A program made the position numbers and the translations under genes. Below the pieces are notes generated by a model. The model saw only the letters and a list, made by a program, of their open reading frames with translations, had not been told where the DNA came from and made no database searches. Positions 501 to 63,468 of a stretch of DNA of 64,000 nt are shown in pieces. Each line of letters starts with the position of its first letter. Position 1 is the stretch's first letter. Origin of the DNA: Minisyncoccota bacterium. Its GTDB lineage: Bacteria; Patescibacteriota; Minisyncoccia; Phycocordibacterales; UBA9973. The DNA lies in contig JAQULK010000001.1 of the NCBI GenBank assembly GCA_028718635.1, positions 242,944 through 306,943 on the forward strand, read 5' to 3'.

Positions 501-622
501 ATCCCGTTAGAAGTCCTATAGTTAATTAAAATCACAACTAGTGATATAATGAAGTCATGTCTTGTAGTCTTTATTATTTAATTTACTACGGAAATCTAAA
601 GATTTCCTACTTCTAACGGGAT
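501..622 (+). repeat. start-codon-embedding inverted-repeat element, copy 1 (ATCCCGTTAGAAG ... CTTCTAACGGGAT)
   Basis: Perfect 13-bp terminal inverted repeats at 501-513 and 610-622. The ATG of the downstream gene (621-623) shares its A and T with the right repeat. The interior is AT-rich and contains a GGAAATC-TAAA-GATTTCC sub-hairpin. It is flanked by direct ATGAAT(CCC). Confidence 0.8.
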
Positions 623-3389
623 GAATCCCTCATTCTTTAGAGAGATGCCGAAGTTTAAAAGTCCTGACGAGGAGCTGGATTATTTGCGTGCTCATGTGAA
701 AGCCAGAGAGGAAGAGCTTATAAACACAGGGCATATAGAACATGCTACAGAGAATGCTGCCCATGGCGTAATCAGTGAATATAAAAATATACCAGCCGAA
801 CAATTAATTCATAAAAATAATCTAATAAATGAAAAAGAGGCGGAAGGTATCGTGTTAAAACTAAAGCCGGAATCTCATGATAGCGTGATGGAAGAACTTT
901 TGGGAATTGTTATTACTAAAGGAGTTCGCAATGCCCTTTCTGTGGTGGAAATGATGAACAATCCACACGTGGATGATGATTTTCACAGAATTCTTATTCA
1001 GTATCTAAAAACTGGGGTGGCAAAATTAGATTTGCGAGAAGATTCTCCTATTTATAAGGCTCTCCATATGACCCTTTTCGAAATTACTCTTCCGCCACCA
1101 GAGGAAGAAGCAGACAAATCGAAAAGTTTTAAAGAATTTATCGGCGCCATGGAACAATTTTACGCTGGAATGCAATCCATCGGAGAAGGCAAATATAATG
1201 AAAAAGAAAACTATTTTACTTTGGAGATAGCCCTCGGCAATCAAAGCGATGAAGTCGTCGTCTATGCAGCTATTCCCAATAAATATCTTTCGCTTTTTGA
1301 AAAACAAATTTTGGCTTTTTATCACTATGCAAAAATCAAAGAAGTCGCGGATGATTACAATATTTTCAGCGAGAACGGCGGGTCAGTTGGCGCTTATGCG
1401 AGTTTTACCGAGCGCGCAGTGATGCCGATCAAAACTTATGACAATATTGAGCATGATCCTATGAATCCGATCTTGAATGTTTTTTCTAAATTGCAAACAT
1501 CAGGAGAAGGCGCGGCGATTCAGCTCGTGATAGCGCCAGCCGGAGATAAATTCATAAATGAATTTCACAAAATTTTAGATGATGTTAAAGACGGTACTTC
1601 GGTAAAACATGCAGATGATAATTTTTACAAATTCAATAAAGCTTTTTTAAAAGCAGGCAAAGGCTTAATGTTCGGTCATAAAGAAAAAAGCGAAGACGAG
1701 AAAAAAGAAAAATATATGAAAGGCAGGCGCGCGGTAGATGAGGGTGCTGCTGAAAAGATAGGAAACAAGATAAAAAGCACTATCATGAAAGCGAATATTC
1801 GAGTGATCGCTTCGGGAGGGACGCCGGAGCGCGCAGAGGCAATTTTACGGGAAATAGAATCTTCTTTTAATCAGTTTTCCGAAGCAGCCAGCAACTCTTT
1901 TGTTTTTGAACAAGCAAGAGGAGGCGAATTAAAAAAACTTTTCCATGATTTTTCTTATCGTACATTTTCTGCCGATAAAATATTGCCTTTGAATTTAAAA
2001 GAGCTTGCTTCAGTATTTCATTTCCCAGTCGGAATGGGGAGCCAGCCACAATTAAGAGAAGCCAAAGCAGGCATTGCTCCTGCTCCGATAGAAATGGGCC
2101 AAGAGGGAGTAATTCTTGGGGTAAACAGTTATAGAGGCAAAGATACCGAAATTCACCTTGCGCGCGAAGATCGCATGCGGCATTTTTATGTCATCGGCCA
2201 GACTGGTACTGGTAAGACGAACATTATGCTCAATATGATAACGCAGGACATTAAAAATGGAGATGGGTGTTGCTATATTGATCCGCATGGAACCGATATT
2301 CAAACGATCCTTTCTCGAATACCAAAAGAACGCATTGAAGATGTGGTTTATTTTGATCCAGCTTATACTGCGCGACCAATGGGCCTCAATATGCTCGAAT
2401 ATGATCCGAAATATCCGGAGCAGAAAACTTTTGTGGTGAATGAAATGATGGGAATCTTCAACAAGCTTTTCGATATGAAAGTCGGAGGCGGAGCGATGTT
2501 TGAGCAATATTTTAGGAATAGCGCCTTTTTAGTGATGGAAGATCCGGAGTCTGGTTCAACTTTGCTTGAGATTACCCGTGTCTTGGGTGATAAAAGTTTT
2601 CGTGATATGAAGCTCGCTAAATGCAAGAATCCTATCATCAAACAATTTTGGATTTCAGCAGAACAAACGACGGGGGATCAATCGCTCGCGAACTTTGTGC
2701 CTTACATTTCTTCTAAGTTCGACAACTTTATCAGCAATGACATCATGCGTCCAGTAGTGCTTCAACAAAATTCTGTTTTTAATTTCAGGAAAATTATGGA
2801 TGAGAAGAAAATTCTTCTAGTAAATCTTTCTAAGGGTAGACTGGGAGATATTAATGCGAACTTAATTGGTCTGGTGCTCGTCGGTAAGATTCAAATGGCA
2901 GCGCTTTCTCGCGTGGATATGTTTGGCAAACCTATGAATGATTTTTATTTATATATTGATGAGTTCCAAAATGTTACCACGGATTCCATTGCTTCTATCT
3001 TATCCGAAGCTCGAAAATATAGACTGTCTTTAAATATTGCGCACCAGTATATCACTCAGCTTGAAGAAAATATTAAAAATGCTGTTTTTGGCAACGTCGG
3101 ATCCATGGCAGTATTTCGAGTGGGCACCGAAGACGCCACTTTTTTAGAGCCGAAATTTAAGCCTCAATTTTCTGCTCGAGATATTACCAAGCTTGAGAAT
3201 CGAAATGCTTATATAAGTATGCTAGTAAATGGCCAACCAACAAAGCCATTTAATTTAAAAACTTTAGATGCAAAAAAAGGCAATCCAGATATTGTAGATA
3301 ATTTAAAAGAACTTTCCTATCTAAAATTTGGCCGAGACCGAGAAGAAGTAGAGGCGGAAATCATGGCAAGGTATTCGGGGATGGAGTAA
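621..3389 (+). CDS. large P-loop ATPase, VirD4/TraG/HerA-like (DUF87-type AAA-like domain) with an N-terminal domain of about 400 aa of unknown function
   Basis: 922-aa ORF. Walker A GQTGTGKT is followed by YIDPHG and a Walker B-like YLYIDEFQN, as in T4SS coupling-protein/HerA-like ATPases. Confidence 0.5.
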   Translation: MNPSFFREMPKFKSPDEELDYLRAHVKAREEELINTGHIEHATENAAHGVISEYKNIPAEQLIHKNNLINEKEAEGIVLKLKPESHDSVMEELLGIVITKGVRNALSVVEMMNNPHVDDDFHRILIQYLKTGVAKLDLREDSPIYKALHMTLFEITLPPPEEEADKSKSFKEFIGAMEQFYAGMQSIGEGKYNEKENYFTLEIALGNQSDEVVVYAAIPNKYLSLFEKQILAFYHYAKIKEVADDYNIFSENGGSVGAYASFTERAVMPIKTYDNIEHDPMNPILNVFSKLQTSGEGAAIQLVIAPAGDKFINEFHKILDDVKDGTSVKHADDNFYKFNKAFLKAGKGLMFGHKEKSEDEKKEKYMKGRRAVDEGAAEKIGNKIKSTIMKANIRVIASGGTPERAEAILREIESSFNQFSEAASNSFVFEQARGGELKKLFHDFSYRTFSADKILPLNLKELASVFHFPVGMGSQPQLREAKAGIAPAPIEMGQEGVILGVNSYRGKDTEIHLAREDRMRHFYVIGQTGTGKTNIMLNMITQDIKNGDGCCYIDPHGTDIQTILSRIPKERIEDVVYFDPAYTARPMGLNMLEYDPKYPEQKTFVVNEMMGIFNKLFDMKVGGGAMFEQYFRNSAFLVMEDPESGSTLLEITRVLGDKSFRDMKLAKCKNPIIKQFWISAEQTTGDQSLANFVPYISSKFDNFISNDIMRPVVLQQNSVFNFRKIMDEKKILLVNLSKGRLGDINANLIGLVLVGKIQMAALSRVDMFGKPMNDFYLYIDEFQNVTTDSIASILSEARKYRLSLNIAHQYITQLEENIKNAVFGNVGSMAVFRVGTEDATFLEPKFKPQFSARDITKLENRNAYISMLVNGQPTKPFNLKTLDAKKGNPDIVDNLKELSYLKFGRDREEVEAEIMARYSGME

Positions 3390-3396
3390 AAATGAA

Positions 3397-3436
3397 TCAC
3401 CACCCCTAGCCCCTCCTCGACAAGGAGGGGAGGAAT
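3397..3436. repeat. GC-rich hairpin repeat, copy A (CACCCCTAGCCCCTCCTC-GACA-AGGAGGGGAGG)
   Basis: GC-rich stem-loop immediately 3' of the ATPase gene in an AT-rich background. It is near-identical to 62778-62818 and related to 6909-6967 and 54547-54616. Confidence 0.7.
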
Positions 3437-4008: not shown

Positions 4009-4013
4009 TTTAC

Positions 4014-4042
4014 AAAATCCTCGAAAGAGGATTTTGTTTTTT
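4014..4042 (+). terminator. rho-independent terminator after ndk
   Basis: AAATCCTC-GAAA-GAGGATTT hairpin followed by a T-run. Confidence 0.7.
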
Positions 4043-5886: not shown

Positions 5887-6505
5887 GGATTCTAAAATTA
5901 ATTTTCCAGACAAACATGGACATAACCAAATAAAGATTTGTGTTTCAGGCGCGGCGGAGACAGGAAATTGCGGAGTAGACGCACTAGAAAAAGCCAAAGA
6001 ACTTGGACGCGAGATTGCGCGTCAGGGAGCCGTGCTTGTAACAGGCGCCACGACCGGATTTCCTTTTTGGGCAGCGATGGGAACGAAAGAAGCAGGCGGG
6101 ATTTCTGTGGGGATATCTCCTGCAGCTTCAGAAAAAGAACACGTCGAAGTGTACAAGCTTCCTCTAGATTATATGGATTTGATTATTTATACTGGTTTTG
6201 GTTATCCCGGGCGCGATCTTTTACTTACTCGCAGCTCTGACGCAGTTATTTGCGGTTGCGGGCGCATAGGTACTATTCACGAGTTCACAGTTGCTTTTGA
6301 AGATGGAAAACCTATTGGTATTTTCAAAGGTACATGGGAAATGGGAGCAGAACTTGAAGAGATTATTGCCAAGGGGCATCGCCCAAATTCTAAAATAGTC
6401 GTCGGGAATGATCCAAAGGAACTTTTAGAAGACGTTATTGCCCTTGTTAGAAAAGACAAGATACCGGAATACAAAATTACAAAAACTCCAATGCCCAGCA
6501 AGTAA
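5885..6505 (+). CDS. Rossmann-fold SLOG/TIGR00725-like nucleotide-binding protein
   Basis: KICVSGAAETG...VLVTGATTGFPFWAAMGTKEAGG...VICGCGRIGTIHEF resembles TIGR00725/LOG-like proteins. Confidence 0.45.
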   Translation: MDSKINFPDKHGHNQIKICVSGAAETGNCGVDALEKAKELGREIARQGAVLVTGATTGFPFWAAMGTKEAGGISVGISPAASEKEHVEVYKLPLDYMDLIIYTGFGYPGRDLLLTRSSDAVICGCGRIGTIHEFTVAFEDGKPIGIFKGTWEMGAELEEIIAKGHRPNSKIVVGNDPKELLEDVIALVRKDKIPEYKITKTPMPSK

Positions 6506-6551
6506 GAAACTATAAAAAACTCAAGATTTATCTTGAGTTTTTTATAGTTTC

Positions 6552-6896
6552 TTACTTTATCGCTGCTAAAACTTTAGCAAAAGTTTCTGGGTGATGTTCT
6601 GCGAAGTCAGAAAGGATTTTTCTATCCAGCATTATGTTTTTCTTATGAAGGGCACCGATCAATTTTGAATAAGACATACCGAGCTCTCTCGCGCCGGCGT
6701 TGATTTTTATATTCCAGAGTTTGCGATTGTGAGATTTTTTATCTTTTCTGTGGGCGAAAGAATAACTTCCAGCATGCAGAAGCGCATCTTTTGCTAGGCG
6801 TTCCTTGGTAGAACGTCCATGGCGCATTCCTTTGGTCTGTTTCAAAACACTTCTTCTTCTTTTTAACGCATGTACTCCTTTTTTTACTCTGGTCAT
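6552..6896 (-). CDS. rplT: 50S ribosomal protein L20
   Basis: MTRVKKGVHALKRRR...GRSTKERLAKDALLHAGSY... is the canonical L20 sequence. Confidence 0.9.
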   Translation of the reverse strand: MTRVKKGVHALKRRRSVLKQTKGMRHGRSTKERLAKDALLHAGSYSFAHRKDKKSHNRKLWNIKINAGARELGMSYSKLIGALHKKNIMLDRKILSDFAEHHPETFAKVLAAIK

Positions 6897-6908: not shown

Positions 6909-6967
6909 CCTCACCCCTTCGCCCCTCTCCATAATTTTCAGATTATGGAGAGGGGTTGGGGAGGGGT
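6909..6967. repeat. GC-rich hairpin repeat, copy B, in the rpmI-rplT intergenic region
   Basis: CCTCACCCCTTCGCCCCTCTCCATAATTTTCAGATTATGGAGAGGGGTTGGGGAGGGGTC forms a long imperfect hairpin. It belongs to the same family as 3397 and 62778. Confidence 0.65.
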
Positions 6968-9129: not shown

Positions 9130-9135
9130 ATTTTG

Positions 9136-9532
9136 TGGAGATGGGGGAAATTGAATCCCCGTGCAGAAGGTTATTGTAAAGAAGTCTACATATATAGCGC
9201 GCTTTTTTGTTTAGATTAAAAAATTCTTAAGCGAGCCAAATATTTTTTAATCGAGTTCTTTTGTTTCGAAAAAAAGTCAGAACAGTCTTTTCTCTATCCC
9301 GATAATATTATGCCTCATCTTATATATCGGAAGTCTATAAGAGAGACACCAGCCGAGCTTACGCGAAGGCTGGAGCGAAAGCGAAATCCTTCATACCGAA
9401 GTAAGGAGAAAGTGCAGCTTTTGCTTTAGCAGTCAATTTTGCAATTAACATTTGGACGAATTTTTACGAGATTACGTCCATGCTCGATATGCATCAATAA
9501 CAAATGGCCAACTGTCTATGCCTGGCATCCCC
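9136..9532 (-). ncRNA. ssrA: candidate tmRNA (ssrA), about 397 nt
   Basis: On the minus strand, 5' GGGGATG pairs with 3' CATCTCC to give a 7-bp acceptor stem (one G-U), followed by discriminator A. The T-arm is GGGGA-TTCAATT-TCCCC. An internal ORF GCT AAA GCA AAA GCT GCA ... GCT CCA GCC TTC GCG TAA encodes a tag ending AFAPAFA*. It lies adjacent to smpB. Confidence 0.55.
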
Positions 9533-33403: not shown

Positions 33404-33585
33404 TTGACCTAACCCCTAAAATCTTTAGGATATGGTCTTATGAAAACTCGCTACAAGATAAAGAACCCTTCGTCAGGGTACTTGTAGCGAGTCATAATCG
33501 GAAACGGTTATGGGTGGTCGAAAGACCATCGCCCGGCGGAGGGCTTTTTGTCTCTCTAGGCAACTAATAAAACTCGCTACAAAAA
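33404..33585 (+). promoter_or_regulatory. promoter-like site (-35 TTGACC, -10 TAGGAT) plus a structured leader with three copies of AACTCGCTACAAG (two direct, one inverted) and a terminator-like GCCCGGCGGAGGGC-T5
   Basis: Repeats at 33442-33455, 33481-33494 (inverted) and 33572-33585 (abutting the ATG at 33586). A GGTGGTC-GAAA-GACCATC tetraloop hairpin sits at 33513-33530. Confidence 0.4.
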
Positions 33586-47838: not shown

Positions 47839-47996
47839 AATTTTATATTTTATATTTATTAAGTTTTTTAATAGGATTCATTTTTGCGTTTTTCACCACG
47901 CCTTCGAGCCGAGGAGGCCGAGTGAGGTGGTTTGATTCGCGCAGAAATTTCTTTTTATCTATTAGTTTATGTTTTTTCATTAATTATTATTTATGG

Positions 47997-54276: not shown

Positions 54277-55014
54277 CTAATGCGCCACGGTGAAAGCGAT
54301 GATTTTTCTGGCGCCGGCTTGCTTTAGAACCTTTCGTGCTTCACTTAAGGTGGCGCCGGTGGTGGTGATGTCGTCTATTAAAATTATATTTCTATTTTTT
54401 ATTAAGCTTGTATTTTTTTCCGCACTTTTAATTGCAAACGAACCAATCAAATTTTTTAATCTAATCCGTCGATCTTTGATGCGCGCTTGGTGTTCAGTTT
54501 CTTTTATTTTTATTAAAATATTATTTTCTAATTGCAAATTTATATTTCCCTCACCCCCAGCCCCTCTCCAACTTTGTTGGAGAGGGGAGGAATGCGAAGC
54601 AGGAGGGGTGAGGTGTCTTGTTTTTGATATGCGAACTATTTCCCTGCAAATTAATTCCGCTTGATTGTATCCTCGTTCCCAGTATCTCTTAGGTGAGAGG
54701 GGAACAGGAATTAAAATAATATTGCTAAAATTTTCCATCACAGATAATTCTGAAAGTTCCTCTAAAATTTTTTCGTAAATAATTTCTGCAAAAATACTGG
54801 CTAGTCTTTTTTTACCTTTATATTTTAAAAGCCACAGCGATTTTTTAATAGGCAGGTGGCGATAGTCATAAAGAGGGAAGATCCACTTGGCGCTTTCGCG
54901 TTCAGCCGAGGGCGCATCTCTCAAACAGGTTAGACATAGGTCTGCCCCATCTTCTTCGCACAAGATGCATTTCGTGGGGAAAACTACATTTAAGATGGTG
55001 TCTAAAAAACTCAT
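54277..55014 (-). CDS. comF: ComF-family phosphoribosyltransferase (zinc finger plus PRTase) carrying an in-frame GC-rich hairpin insertion
   Basis: N-terminal CILCEEDGADLCLTC and C-terminal ILIDDITTTGATLSEA PRTase motif. The repeat segment 54547-54616 encodes TRHLTPPASHSSPLQQSWRGAGGEGN. Confidence 0.6.
   Translation of the reverse strand: MSFLDTILNVVFPTKCILCEEDGADLCLTCLRDAPSAERESAKWIFPLYDYRHLPIKKSLWLLKYKGKKRLASIFAEIIYEKILEELSELSVMENFSNIILIPVPLSPKRYWERGYNQAELICREIVRISKTRHLTPPASHSSPLQQSWRGAGGEGNINLQLENNILIKIKETEHQARIKDRRIRLKNLIGSFAIKSAEKNTSLIKNRNIILIDDITTTGATLSEARKVLKQAGARKIIAFTVAH
54547..54616. repeat. GC-rich hairpin repeat, copy C, inside the comF coding sequence (in frame)
   Basis: TCCCTCACCCCCAGCCCCTCTCCAACTTTGTTGGAGAGGGGAGG... 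belongs to the same family as 3397, 6909 and 62778. Confidence 0.65.
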
Positions 55015-56309: not shown

Positions 56310-56375
56310 ACCCGCACACTTGTGCACAAGTGTGCGGGTAAAGTTATACACAATTTACTTCTTTGAAATCCTCTT

Positions 56376-59936: not shown

Positions 59937-59973
59937 TGTTGCAAAGTATTTTATAGTATAATGAATCATTCCT

Positions 59974-61503: not shown

Positions 61504-61505
61504 GA

Positions 61506-61550
61506 TTCCGGACGTTGGACGTCCGAAAAACGGACGTCCAACGTCCGGAA
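61506..61550. other. perfect 20-bp inverted repeat TTCCGGACGTTGGACGTCCG-AAAAA-CGGACGTCCAACGTCCGGAA between pilT and pilC
   Basis: Read directly from the sequence. It is GC-rich in an AT-rich region, contains nested palindromes (GGACGTCC), and is not followed by a T-run. Confidence 0.85.
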
Positions 61551-61566
61551 TAAGGTAAACAAAACT

Positions 61567-62843: not shown

Positions 62844-62994
62844 GCCCAAAGGGCGAGGTGGTTCCCTGTGGATAACTCTCTTGCCTAAAAATTTTTGTCT
62901 CTATGATATAATAAATGTATTAGAAACAAGTCGAAATATTTTCGCCGGAGGCGAATAAAATTATAAGTTATTATTAATAATTAGAATTTAATTT

Positions 62995-63468
62995 ATGAAG
63001 AAATTTAAAAAAGGTTTTACGTTGATTGAACTTTTAGTTGTCGTTGCTATCATTGGTATCTTGGCATCGGTTGTGTTAGCTTCCCTTAACACTGCTAGGA
63101 CAAAAGGTACAGATGCTGCTATCAAGGCAAACTTGACCAATACTCGTGCTCAAGCAGCAATATTTTATGATTCAAATACCGCAGCAACTAATACATATAC
63201 TAATGTTTGTGCTTTAGGTCCAATAGTGGGTGGAGTAAATACAATCAATGCTGGGGTGCAAGCAGCCTCAACTGCAGCGGGTACTGGCACCGTTGTTGTT
63301 AATGGCGCAATCGGAAATGCAAATTGTAATGATTCCTCTTCTGCATGGGCAGCCGAGGTTAAATTAAAAGCTCCTACTACTACAACATATTTTTGTGTAG
63401 ATTCGTCTGGTGCTGCAAAGGAAACGACAACAGCACTTACCGATTCTGCAGATACTACATGTAATTAG
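62995..63468 (+). CDS. type IV pilin (prepilin with N-terminal methylation motif)
   Basis: KKGFTLIELLVVVAIIGILASVVL. Confidence 0.7.
   Translation: MKKFKKGFTLIELLVVVAIIGILASVVLASLNTARTKGTDAAIKANLTNTRAQAAIFYDSNTAATNTYTNVCALGPIVGGVNTINAGVQAASTAAGTGTVVVNGAIGNANCNDSSSAWAAEVKLKAPTTTTYFCVDSSGAAKETTTALTDSADTTCN

Follow-up and report, generated by a model that had tools for sequence, protein, structure and literature searches.

The 64,000-nucleotide stretch analysed here, hereafter the window (contig JAQULK010000001.1 of assembly GCA_028718635.1, positions 242,944 to 306,943 of the forward strand), comes from a Minisyncoccota bacterium, a member of the Patescibacteria (Paceibacteria), and contains a family of GC-rich hairpin repeats, one copy of which lies in frame within comF, a gene that adjoins a type IV pilus gene cluster. 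The initial annotation had listed four related copies, after an ATPase gene, between rpmI and rplT, inside comF and after pilC; all four are present at these places, in the same orientation on the + strand, and are called copies A to D below. The names pilB, pilT and pilC are our own labels for the T2SSE ATPase and T2SSF genes, which we take to correspond to them, and L-numbers designate loci of relatives or of genome-scan matches, L001-L084 being the comF ortholog loci. The features that enter the argument are the following.

3398-3436, + strand: copy A, downstream of a 922-aa open reading frame (ORF; 621-3389)
6909-6967, + strand: copy B, in the rpmI-rplT spacer
47893-47930, strand not assigned: possible degenerate fifth copy, intergenic, with outer arms CACCAC ... 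GAGTGAGGTGG around a GC-rich core
54277-55014, - strand: comF, an intact 245-aa ORF for a ComF/ComFC-type phosphoribosyltransferase-fold protein, host of copy C
54549-54615, element on the + strand and read on the - strand within comF: copy C, in frame
59937-59973, + strand: empty site, filled by a full DUF559 element at the orthologous place in L012 and L049
62778-62862, + strand: copy D, 3' of the pilC stop codon

The motif CCCCTCYYC occurs 8 times in the window against 0.72 expected, a count that none of 100 shuffled sequences reaches, and a longer form of the motif, allowing at most 3 mismatches, gives 9 matches against 0.37 expected. The elements have a GC content of 56-61% in a window that is mostly 29-42% GC. 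With a folding program that models Watson-Crick pairs only, copies B, C and D fold with z-scores of -4.0 to -6.9 relative to shuffled sequences and copy A with z = -2.2; the value for copy B is -6.9 on the + strand and -5.2 on the - strand. All four copies have the same layout, in which an outer arm (CYCACCCC or CCACCCC) and 3-4 bases precede a perfect hairpin formed by a C-stem and a G-stem, CCCCTC(Y)CC / GG(R)GAGGGG. Copies B, C and D have in addition a complementary arm at the far side (GGGGTGAGG or GGTGGT), by which the whole is closed into a nested structure, and in copies B and C the stem is lengthened to 12-14 bp, with loops of 3-6 nt. The corresponding motif oligonucleotide of this lineage is CCCCTCTCCAACAAAGTTGGAGAGGGGCTGGGGGTGAGG.

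The copies differ in how much of this layout they retain. Copy A, made of CCACCCC, TAG, the hairpin CCCCTCCT/AGGAGGGG and AGGAAT, has the left-end architecture only and is thus a solo end. Copy B is a minimal palindromic form (CTCACCCC, TTCG, a 14-bp hairpin, TT, GGGGAGGGG) in which the triplex motif described below can be read on both strands; its location between rpmI and rplT stands as annotated, with the added detail that it fills the whole spacer and that both genes are on the - strand. Copy D has two ends, the left one consisting of CCACCCC, TTA, a first hairpin and A, followed by GAATTCC, and the right one of a second hairpin, TGCCCAAAGGGCG and AGGTGGT. Searches for the family by other routes gave little: Rfam has no family for the repeat (a scan of the window at gathering thresholds and permissive scans of copies C and D returned only chance microRNA-like hairpins), a literature search with the raw repeat strings found only unrelated papers on human G-quadruplexes and on primers, and a protein-database search with the concatenated element-encoded peptides yielded 25 candidates, none of which scored.

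The repeats belong to the BoxC/PIT/TMECO class of intrastrand triplex motifs (Bachellier et al., 1990s; Hoyne and Maher, 2000; Holder et al., 2015, PMC4666352). The G/C-rich TMECO, 5'-CCCTCNCCC N3-6 GGGNGAGGG N3 GGGNGAGGG, is the same motif as BoxC of E. coli and as the elements that Hoyne and Maher named PIT; 3610 copies are known in 262 proteobacterial genomes, triplex motifs rich in G/C abound in cyanobacteria, and as single strands E. coli oligonucleotides form a stable purine-motif triplex in vitro (PMC4666352). The copies of the window fit the same scheme, C-stem N3-6 G-stem N3 G-stem, with the second loops CTA (A), CGAA (B), CTG (C) and TAA (D) on the - strand, and resemble the sequences tabulated for E. 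coli (Table 1), such as CCCTCTCCCTGTGGGAGAGGGCCGGGGTGAGGGC. The antiparallel triads expected of the class (G.G-C, A.A-T, T.A-T), for which one mismatch at most is tolerated, are allowed at 9 of 9 positions on the - strand of every copy, and at 8 of 9 on the + strand of copy B. Relative to the literal TMECO pattern the blocks and their interruptions are the same (an A/T centre, then A/A) and the register is shifted; copies A and D use GAGGAGGGG / GGGGTGGTG, and four Gs stand beside loop 2 against three in E. coli, which explains why E. coli is not recovered by our scan pattern. This pattern, CACCCC N3-4 CCCCTCYYC N3-20 GGAGRGG, was applied to one genome per species and returned at least 120 loci; the matches listed come from Chloroflexota, Cyanobacteria, Alpha-, Beta- and Gammaproteobacteria, Bacteroidota, Acidobacteria, Clostridia, Bipolaricaulota and one Nomurabacteria genome.

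The same matches support the third strand. The base before CACCCC, which the pattern does not force, agrees with the base of the arm in 145 of the 149 matches listed (T-T 86, C-C 59), and a CC before the tail, equally unforced, is near-universal among them. Tail and arm therefore constitute a mirror repeat, in which the T to C switch of the covarying base replaces an A.A-T triad by a G.G-C triad. In the purine-motif reading, the A found in the tail where a pyrimidine mirror would expect T forms a T.A-T triad. A pyrimidine-motif triplex on the C-rich strand, an i-motif, a G-quadruplex and an anti-Shine-Dalgarno mimicry were considered and set aside, since the purine motif explains this central A/T exception and also matches the published nuclear magnetic resonance and circular dichroism work. 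The idea of a dispersed palindromic repeat family put forward in the initial annotation is thus borne out, whereas the suggested likeness to REP/BIME elements is not: there is no GTAG or CGTC tag, and the match is with BoxC/PIT/TMECO instead. Furthermore, no RAYT gene was seen in the loci examined, to which the search was confined; where inverted copies were found to enclose a gene, it is a DUF559 gene. The TMECO copies of E. coli K-12 are all intergenic, often arranged in inverted pairs and tied to local indel variability (PMC4666352). Copy C lies within comF and further in-frame copies exist elsewhere, so that intergenic location is rather a habit of the E. coli copies than a structural criterion of the motif.

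The host protein of copy C matches PF00156 (phosphoribosyltransferase, PRTase) and PF18912 (double zinc ribbon) in Pfam and carries the phosphoribosyl pyrophosphate (PRPP) loop, with the sequence DDITTTGAT. A sequence search of solved structures barely picked it up; the fold search succeeded, an AlphaFold model (pTM 0.80) having as its best solved match in Foldseek the ComF of H. pylori (7P0H, E = 1.9e-8). Read on the - strand of the window, copy C begins with the outer arm CACCTCACCCC and a filler containing a small hairpin (TGCTTCGCA), continues with the 12-bp hairpin CCCCTCTCCAAC/GTTGGAGAGGGG and CTG, and ends with the mirror G-stem GGGGTGAGG; it encodes the peptide HLTPPASHSSPLQQSWRGAGGE, and four of its six reading frames are open. 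The frame is indeed intact, as had been annotated, but the insert comprises 22 codons rather than about 23, the spacing between the ERGYNQ and EHQA anchors being 65 residues in the window and 43 in the commonest ortholog form. Nor does it separate the zinc finger from the PRTase domain: in the model helix 118-132 precedes it and strand 160-162 follows it, which places it within the PRTase fold and upstream of the PRPP loop. Residues 135-156 have pLDDT values below 50 and form a loop, so that copy C is predicted to add a disordered Pro/Ser/Gly-rich loop of 22 residues, in keeping with the tolerated linker that the initial annotation had envisaged as one possibility.

The alignment of ComF orthologs establishes that the segment is an insertion, since orthologs of 219-223 aa do not have it. 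The length of ComF homologs with 65-88% identity lies between 219 and 269 aa, and a single spot accounts for all of this variation. The DNA of 84 comF ortholog loci was gathered. An identical peptide specified by differing DNA, which would have spoken for a conserved linker, was looked for among them and not found; the orthologs that have the segment carry either identical DNA or structural variants of the element in either orientation. Where the GC-rich element is present it occupies the same codon position, its interior facing either way, and deleted forms of it occur in L064, L042 and L076. The commonest allele of the loop is, however, a 20-nt palindrome, AT[C/T/A]TACGCCATGGCGTA[G/A/T]AT, translated as LRHGV(D/N/Y). 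In other alleles this palindrome is duplicated, stretched to 16-17 bp, or holds a further hairpin nested in its own loop; L024 and L007 have a different long palindrome, and seven orthologs (L077, L065, L067, L078, L010, L028, L073) are without any hairpin at the slot. Element-bearing alleles have in common SKT(N/R/K) before and VF(T/S)L after the element, probably because these residues translate its A-rich leader and the ATGTATTT that follows its right arm.

A likely origin of the family is suggested by longer units found in related genomes. GC-rich hairpin ends flank all eight DUF559 genes examined in Paceibacteria, three of which come from comF-region loci (L012, L049, L029) and five of which were sampled DUF559-first (L206, L208-L211). 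These genes stand in at least six contexts: after pilB, after pilM, after rpoD, in an adk-map cluster, beside terC and at the L029 site. The left end of the unit reads TCCACCCCG, a small hairpin, CCA, CCCCTCAAGAGGGG and AAT, and the right end ATT, CCCCTCTTGAGGGG, a small hairpin and CGGGGTGGA; the DUF559 ORF starts at an ATG in the A-rich leader just outside the left arm, reads through the arm and ends with a TGA codon that lies in the right hairpin's loop. The empty site of the window lies between the 580-aa T2SSE ATPase gene called pilB and a response-regulator gene. Copy D aligns collinearly with a left and a right end of such units put together, including the GAATTCC junction and the TGCCC-AAA-GGGCG-(A/G)GGTGG tail, and by its sequence would be what an internal deletion of the ORF leaves behind, a fusion of ends resembling a MITE, a miniature transposable element with inverted repeats. 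Copy A is collinear with the left ends of DUF559 elements, and copies B and C are minimal fused forms. As in MITEs, terminal inverted repeats are held in common with a longer element and there is no ORF; the parent element encodes a PD-(D/E)xK nuclease and not a known transposase.

The association is not confined to this lineage. Among 120 listed loci chosen by the DNA motif alone, 11 contain a DUF559 ORF according to a home-made DUF559 profile, four of these being confirmed by Pfam (PF04480, E = 1e-33 to 1e-35), and inverted motif copies flank all 11, as judged by eye on the printed flanks. Some of these units are themselves in frame: motif-DUF559-motif inserts of about 0.5 kb occur in MetRS (L093), in LeuRS at two different sites (L106, L194) and in a Type ISP restriction-modification enzyme (L177). 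Pfam finds no Hint/intein domain in these MetRS, LeuRS and Type ISP host proteins, the inserts containing DUF559 and MTES_1575 only, so that the DUF559 insert is presumably not spliced out. The bare motif, without the nuclease gene, is in frame in the tRNA-dihydrouridine synthase Dus of a Nomurabacteria genome (L132), in an M19 dipeptidase (L187), in PurL (L120) and in an FtsX-like permease (L087). Two topologies are encountered, namely outer arm, hairpin, ORF, hairpin, outer arm in the lineage of the window and in Bacteroidota, and hairpin, arm, ORF, arm, hairpin in Proteobacteria; the latter without its ORF is the arrangement of the paired type A and type B TMECOs of E. coli.

In E. coli K-12 itself, the 3' end of the DUF559 gene ycjD (..RRSPSP*) falls within a degenerate hairpin of the motif (L205, 1349500-1352500), and TMECO #9 lies 170 bp downstream of ycjD, after a partial duplicate of the ycjD 3' end located about 100 nt on. 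Of 5426 complete E. coli genomes, 3378 have the gene and 38% lack it; in an ST131 strain that lacks it, the eef efflux island occupies its place, which is uninformative as an empty site. A perfect 17-bp inverted repeat, TCACCTCATTCTGACAA / TTGTCAGAATGAGGTGA, is also seen just upstream of ycjD. We found no open-access paper linking DUF559 or ycjD with BoxC or PIT, and the link between DUF559 and the motif appears to be undescribed.

The history of the comF copy was followed on a neighbour-joining tree of 1679 aligned residues from PilM, the two T2SSE ATPases called PilB and PilT and the T2SSF protein called PilC; a tree of comF alone (199 columns) was too poorly resolved for counting gains and was replaced by this pilus concatenate. 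The window groups with L001 and L005 (100% bootstrap; pilus proteins 91-93% identical), and the three are nested among alleles with the basal or another palindrome (clade B, 100%). The GC-element alleles of L069, L076 and L042/43 fall in clade A (95%), which implies at least two gains of the element in comF, or many losses. The state before insertion was not a simple empty site but another, comF-specific palindrome. Likewise, the recent insertion considered in the initial annotation does not hold at the strain level, the copy being common to three species-level relatives. Its core is identical at 67 of 67 nt in the comF genes of these three species, against 72.6% invariant columns outside, where the longest invariant run is 15 (p ~5e-10), and small indels occur exactly at its borders within the group. 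This identity could reflect a nucleic-acid constraint or a recent lateral spread into the same site.

The model we propose, and which we consider probable, is that the repeats derive in miniature, ORF-less form from a compact selfish element, of which they are the terminal inverted repeats, either solo or fused, and that the copy in comF is tolerated in frame. The full element, of about 0.5 kb, would consist of a DUF559 (Vsr-like PD-(D/E)xK) nuclease gene between inverted GC-rich ends, each end comprising the hairpin CCCCTCYCC / GGRGAGGGG, a short spacer and a mirror G-run, GGGGTGRGG. As single-stranded DNA such an end could form a purine-motif triplex or, where both outer arms are present, a nested hairpin. 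The DUF559 nuclease would cut at or near the structured ends or the target sites, after which repair or recombination by the host would copy or move the unit; the ORF-less miniatures would either be mobilised in trans or be formed in place by deletion. Since copies favour the places just after stop codons and, in comF, a palindrome that pre-existed there, the target may be DNA that forms hairpins. In comF, the GC-rich copy would have replaced the older 20-nt palindrome specific to that gene. The ends being purine/pyrimidine tracts with few stop codons, a copy that keeps the frame in a permissive loop would simply be translated; the in-frame state in comF is most simply seen as the outcome of selection filtering the insertions of an element in which stop codons are few, and the copy would have no function for the host.

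Several observations weigh against this model. No DUF559 gene is present in the 64-kb window, which makes an autonomous partner in this genome hypothetical, and the DUF559 genes of the lineage are free-standing, the best 120 homologs being of 134-196 aa with no in-frame fusion among them. The filled sites examined display no direct repeats indicative of a target-site duplication, nor was a target consensus found. Mobility driven by DUF559 is our inference, and any way in which a lone PD-(D/E)xK nuclease could move DNA is hypothetical. For the motif class at large, no triplex has been detected in vivo and no mobility functions were found near TMECOs (Holder et al. 2015, PMC4666352). Finally, the 67/67 identity of the comF copy, set in surroundings of which 27% of the columns vary, is suggestive less of neutral junk than of constraint or of a lateral spread that was recent, and the fact that most comF orthologs keep some hairpin with compensatory changes hints at a host function for the hairpin.

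These last two points are also the strength of the first alternative, which we judge unlikely though the most serious of those considered: the nucleic-acid hairpin of comF would be functional, whether by stabilising or processing the mRNA, by making translation pause between folding units or by serving as a site in the DNA. Any hairpin of sufficient stability would then suffice, and the GC-rich element would have taken over the function of the ancestral one. Nearly all of the 84 ortholog loci encode a hairpin at the same loop of comF, of at least three unrelated sequence kinds, and the GC-rich copy is invariant in three species with its loops included. In the basal palindrome, 84% of the cells are paired over 19 sequences and four pairs change on both sides; the third pair is CG in 7, AU in 3 and UA in 3, and these switches alter amino acids. 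Its covariation score of 0.27 compares with 0.18 in shuffled alignments and is reached by 1 of 500 shuffles, a support that is modest and drawn from related sequences. This palindrome is restricted to comF within 970 kb of related DNA, and the idea that it was a second dispersed repeat was rejected on account of that comF-only occurrence. On the other hand, the seven orthologs named above have no hairpin whatsoever, and the same element family resides at unrelated intergenic and coding sites, so that its presence in comF requires no function specific to comF. We know of no comF regulation by such a hairpin. The palindrome with compensatory changes is present in L003, L012, L016, L029 and others, at positions orthologous to about 54540-54620.

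Less likely still is that copies A and D are intrinsic terminators or 3' mRNA stabilisers, that copy B sequesters the ribosome-binding site of rplT for translational coupling, and that the family spreads because it is useful. Copies A and D do come right after stop codons in the sense orientation and score as marginal hits in a terminator scan, with the tails AATACTTTTG and AATTCCTTCT; copy D is kept at the same place in L018, L041 and L063, which span both major clades, and the GGGGUGAGG with which copy B ends is separated from the rplT AUG by about 12 nt. However, no T-run directly follows the stems, and the convincing terminators of the window are of another kind, for instance 4012-4037 followed by TTTTTT. 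In many relatives the place behind pilC has nothing in it or is taken by unrelated hairpins, and the terminator reading accounts neither for the mirror third arm nor for the link with DUF559. Moreover, PIT/BoxC elements showed no promoter or terminator activity in E. coli (PMC4666352). Intrinsic terminators, the other possibility raised in the initial annotation, are therefore not convincing for these copies, which lack a proper T-run and of which copies B and C lie inside a transcription unit, one within an operon and the other within an ORF; roles of A and D in termination and of B in coupling may be side effects, though neither the tail sequences nor the E. coli data support them. As for a protein linker selected at the amino-acid level, with the palindromic DNA as an incidental feature, it would account for the intact frame and for the HLTP...GGEV motifs that recur in many orthologs, yet it is highly improbable and essentially excluded, for these residues are the translated outer arms of the element, the interior of the linker, found in both DNA orientations, can be as short as 5 or as long as about 45 residues and many orthologs lack it, the region is predicted to be disordered, close relatives have identical DNA and not merely an identical peptide, and at other places in the window members of this DNA family lie between genes.

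Returning to the selfish-element model, its components have counterparts in several known systems. Rickettsia palindromic elements (RPEs) measure about 100-150 bp and are restricted to Rickettsia; to our knowledge they possess no triplex-type mirror arm and no associated nuclease. They resemble the present repeats in being selfish palindromes, in frame in conserved genes and translated as extra surface segments that leave the host protein intact, and differ in having no sequence relation to them (for pointers see PMC10969869 and PMC1779305). REP/BIME elements with their RAYT (Y1 HUH) genes offer the parallel of short GC-rich palindromes with a conserved single-stranded tag beside the hairpin, and of a small enzyme gene flanked by inverted repeat copies amid many ORF-less ones (PMC3733652). 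Here, by contrast, the tag is a 9-nt mirror G-run instead of GTAG or CGTC, the gene encodes a PD-(D/E)xK DUF559 nuclease instead of a Y1 transposase, and the motif is nearly identical across phyla while the sequence of REPs is specific to the lineage. Vsr-like homing endonucleases and inteins likewise place a Vsr/PD-(D/E)xK nuclease in frame in, or beside, essential genes, and distant lineages differ in whether they have them at identical sites (Dassa et al., 2009, PMC2677866). Unlike inteins, the host proteins found here have no Hint domain by Pfam, and unlike homing genes the DUF559 unit bears terminal repeats that form hairpins and has ORF-less miniatures, left at many sites that are unrelated.

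Within their own class, the repeats agree with BoxC/PIT/TMECO in the three-block design and the core GGAGAGGG-NNN-GGGTGAGG, in the inverted pairs, the high conservation and the spread over multiple phyla, and in local indel variability, represented here by the hypervariable comF loop and the post-pilC slot. They depart from it in that the copies of the window are nested in an outer Watson-Crick stem and have four Gs at the short loop, that their host is a member of the Patescibacteria with one copy coding and in frame, and that they flank DUF559 nuclease genes, whereas no mobility gene was found with the published elements.

Other observations were made in the course of this analysis. Beyond copy D, the sequence TGTGGATAA at 62867-62875 is a perfect DnaA-box consensus (reverse complement TTATCCACA), directly upstream of -35/-10 elements (TTGCC, N17, TATAAT) that precede a pilin-like gene (62995-63468); the box is kept in nearly all ortholog loci (most of L001-L084), and the DNA from it back to the pilC stop codon is hypervariable. 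The post-pilC slot contains TAGCTTTTAGCTAACTAGCTTGTAGC-type repeats, stop-rich in all frames, in L025, L060, L074, L069 and L033, and another hairpin family, TGCAGGGTAGTGAGC..GCTCTACTACCCTG, in L001, L007, L012, L019, L069 and L076; the occurrence of different hairpin families there indicates a turnover of unrelated hairpins at one site. Three long perfect inverted repeats with arms of 28, 21 and 16 nt (6500-6557, 61505-61551 and 56310-56339, respectively) occupy short spacers between genes, one of them where two genes converge, one between pilT and pilC and one behind pilM; their sequences show no relation to the GC-rich family, and they resemble ordinary terminator or processing hairpins. 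The window also contains a LOOT RNA (33406-33530, Rfam RF03000, 80 bits) and a tmRNA (9133-9532, 124 bits), both ordinary for the lineage. In L212 (1-2498), just upstream of the DUF559 element, the gene caller merged the DnaG primase and a sigma-70 factor into a product of 982 aa, while the near-identical L211 has them as two genes; the merged product is probably due to a frameshift or to an assembly difference.

In conclusion, the kind of repeat described here is itself known, and what appears to be new is the lineage, the unusual coding position and the link with DUF559. We tentatively extend the model, with rather less confidence than we place in it for the window, to BoxC/PIT/TMECO as a whole, orphan repeats since the 1990s: these motifs may be the terminal inverted repeats of unrecognised, pan-bacterial minimal mobile elements of about 0.5 kb driven by DUF559, which, like their ORF-less miniatures, could live in frame in essential genes (aminoacyl-tRNA synthetases, ComF, Dus, PurL) and be read through unspliced. 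For annotation, such inserts would explain length variation and low-complexity P/S/G loops in conserved proteins, as well as spurious "hypothetical proteins" of the PLSP..GEG..GVRG type. In-frame, translated selfish palindromes, hitherto an oddity of Rickettsia, would also exist in Patescibacteria, Bacteroidota, Proteobacteria and others, some of them in aminoacyl-tRNA synthetases. The DUF559 units thus offer a candidate origin and a candidate mobility gene for the BoxC/triplex-motif repeats and, conversely, a candidate role for DUF559, a large family without an assigned function that includes YcjD of E. coli.

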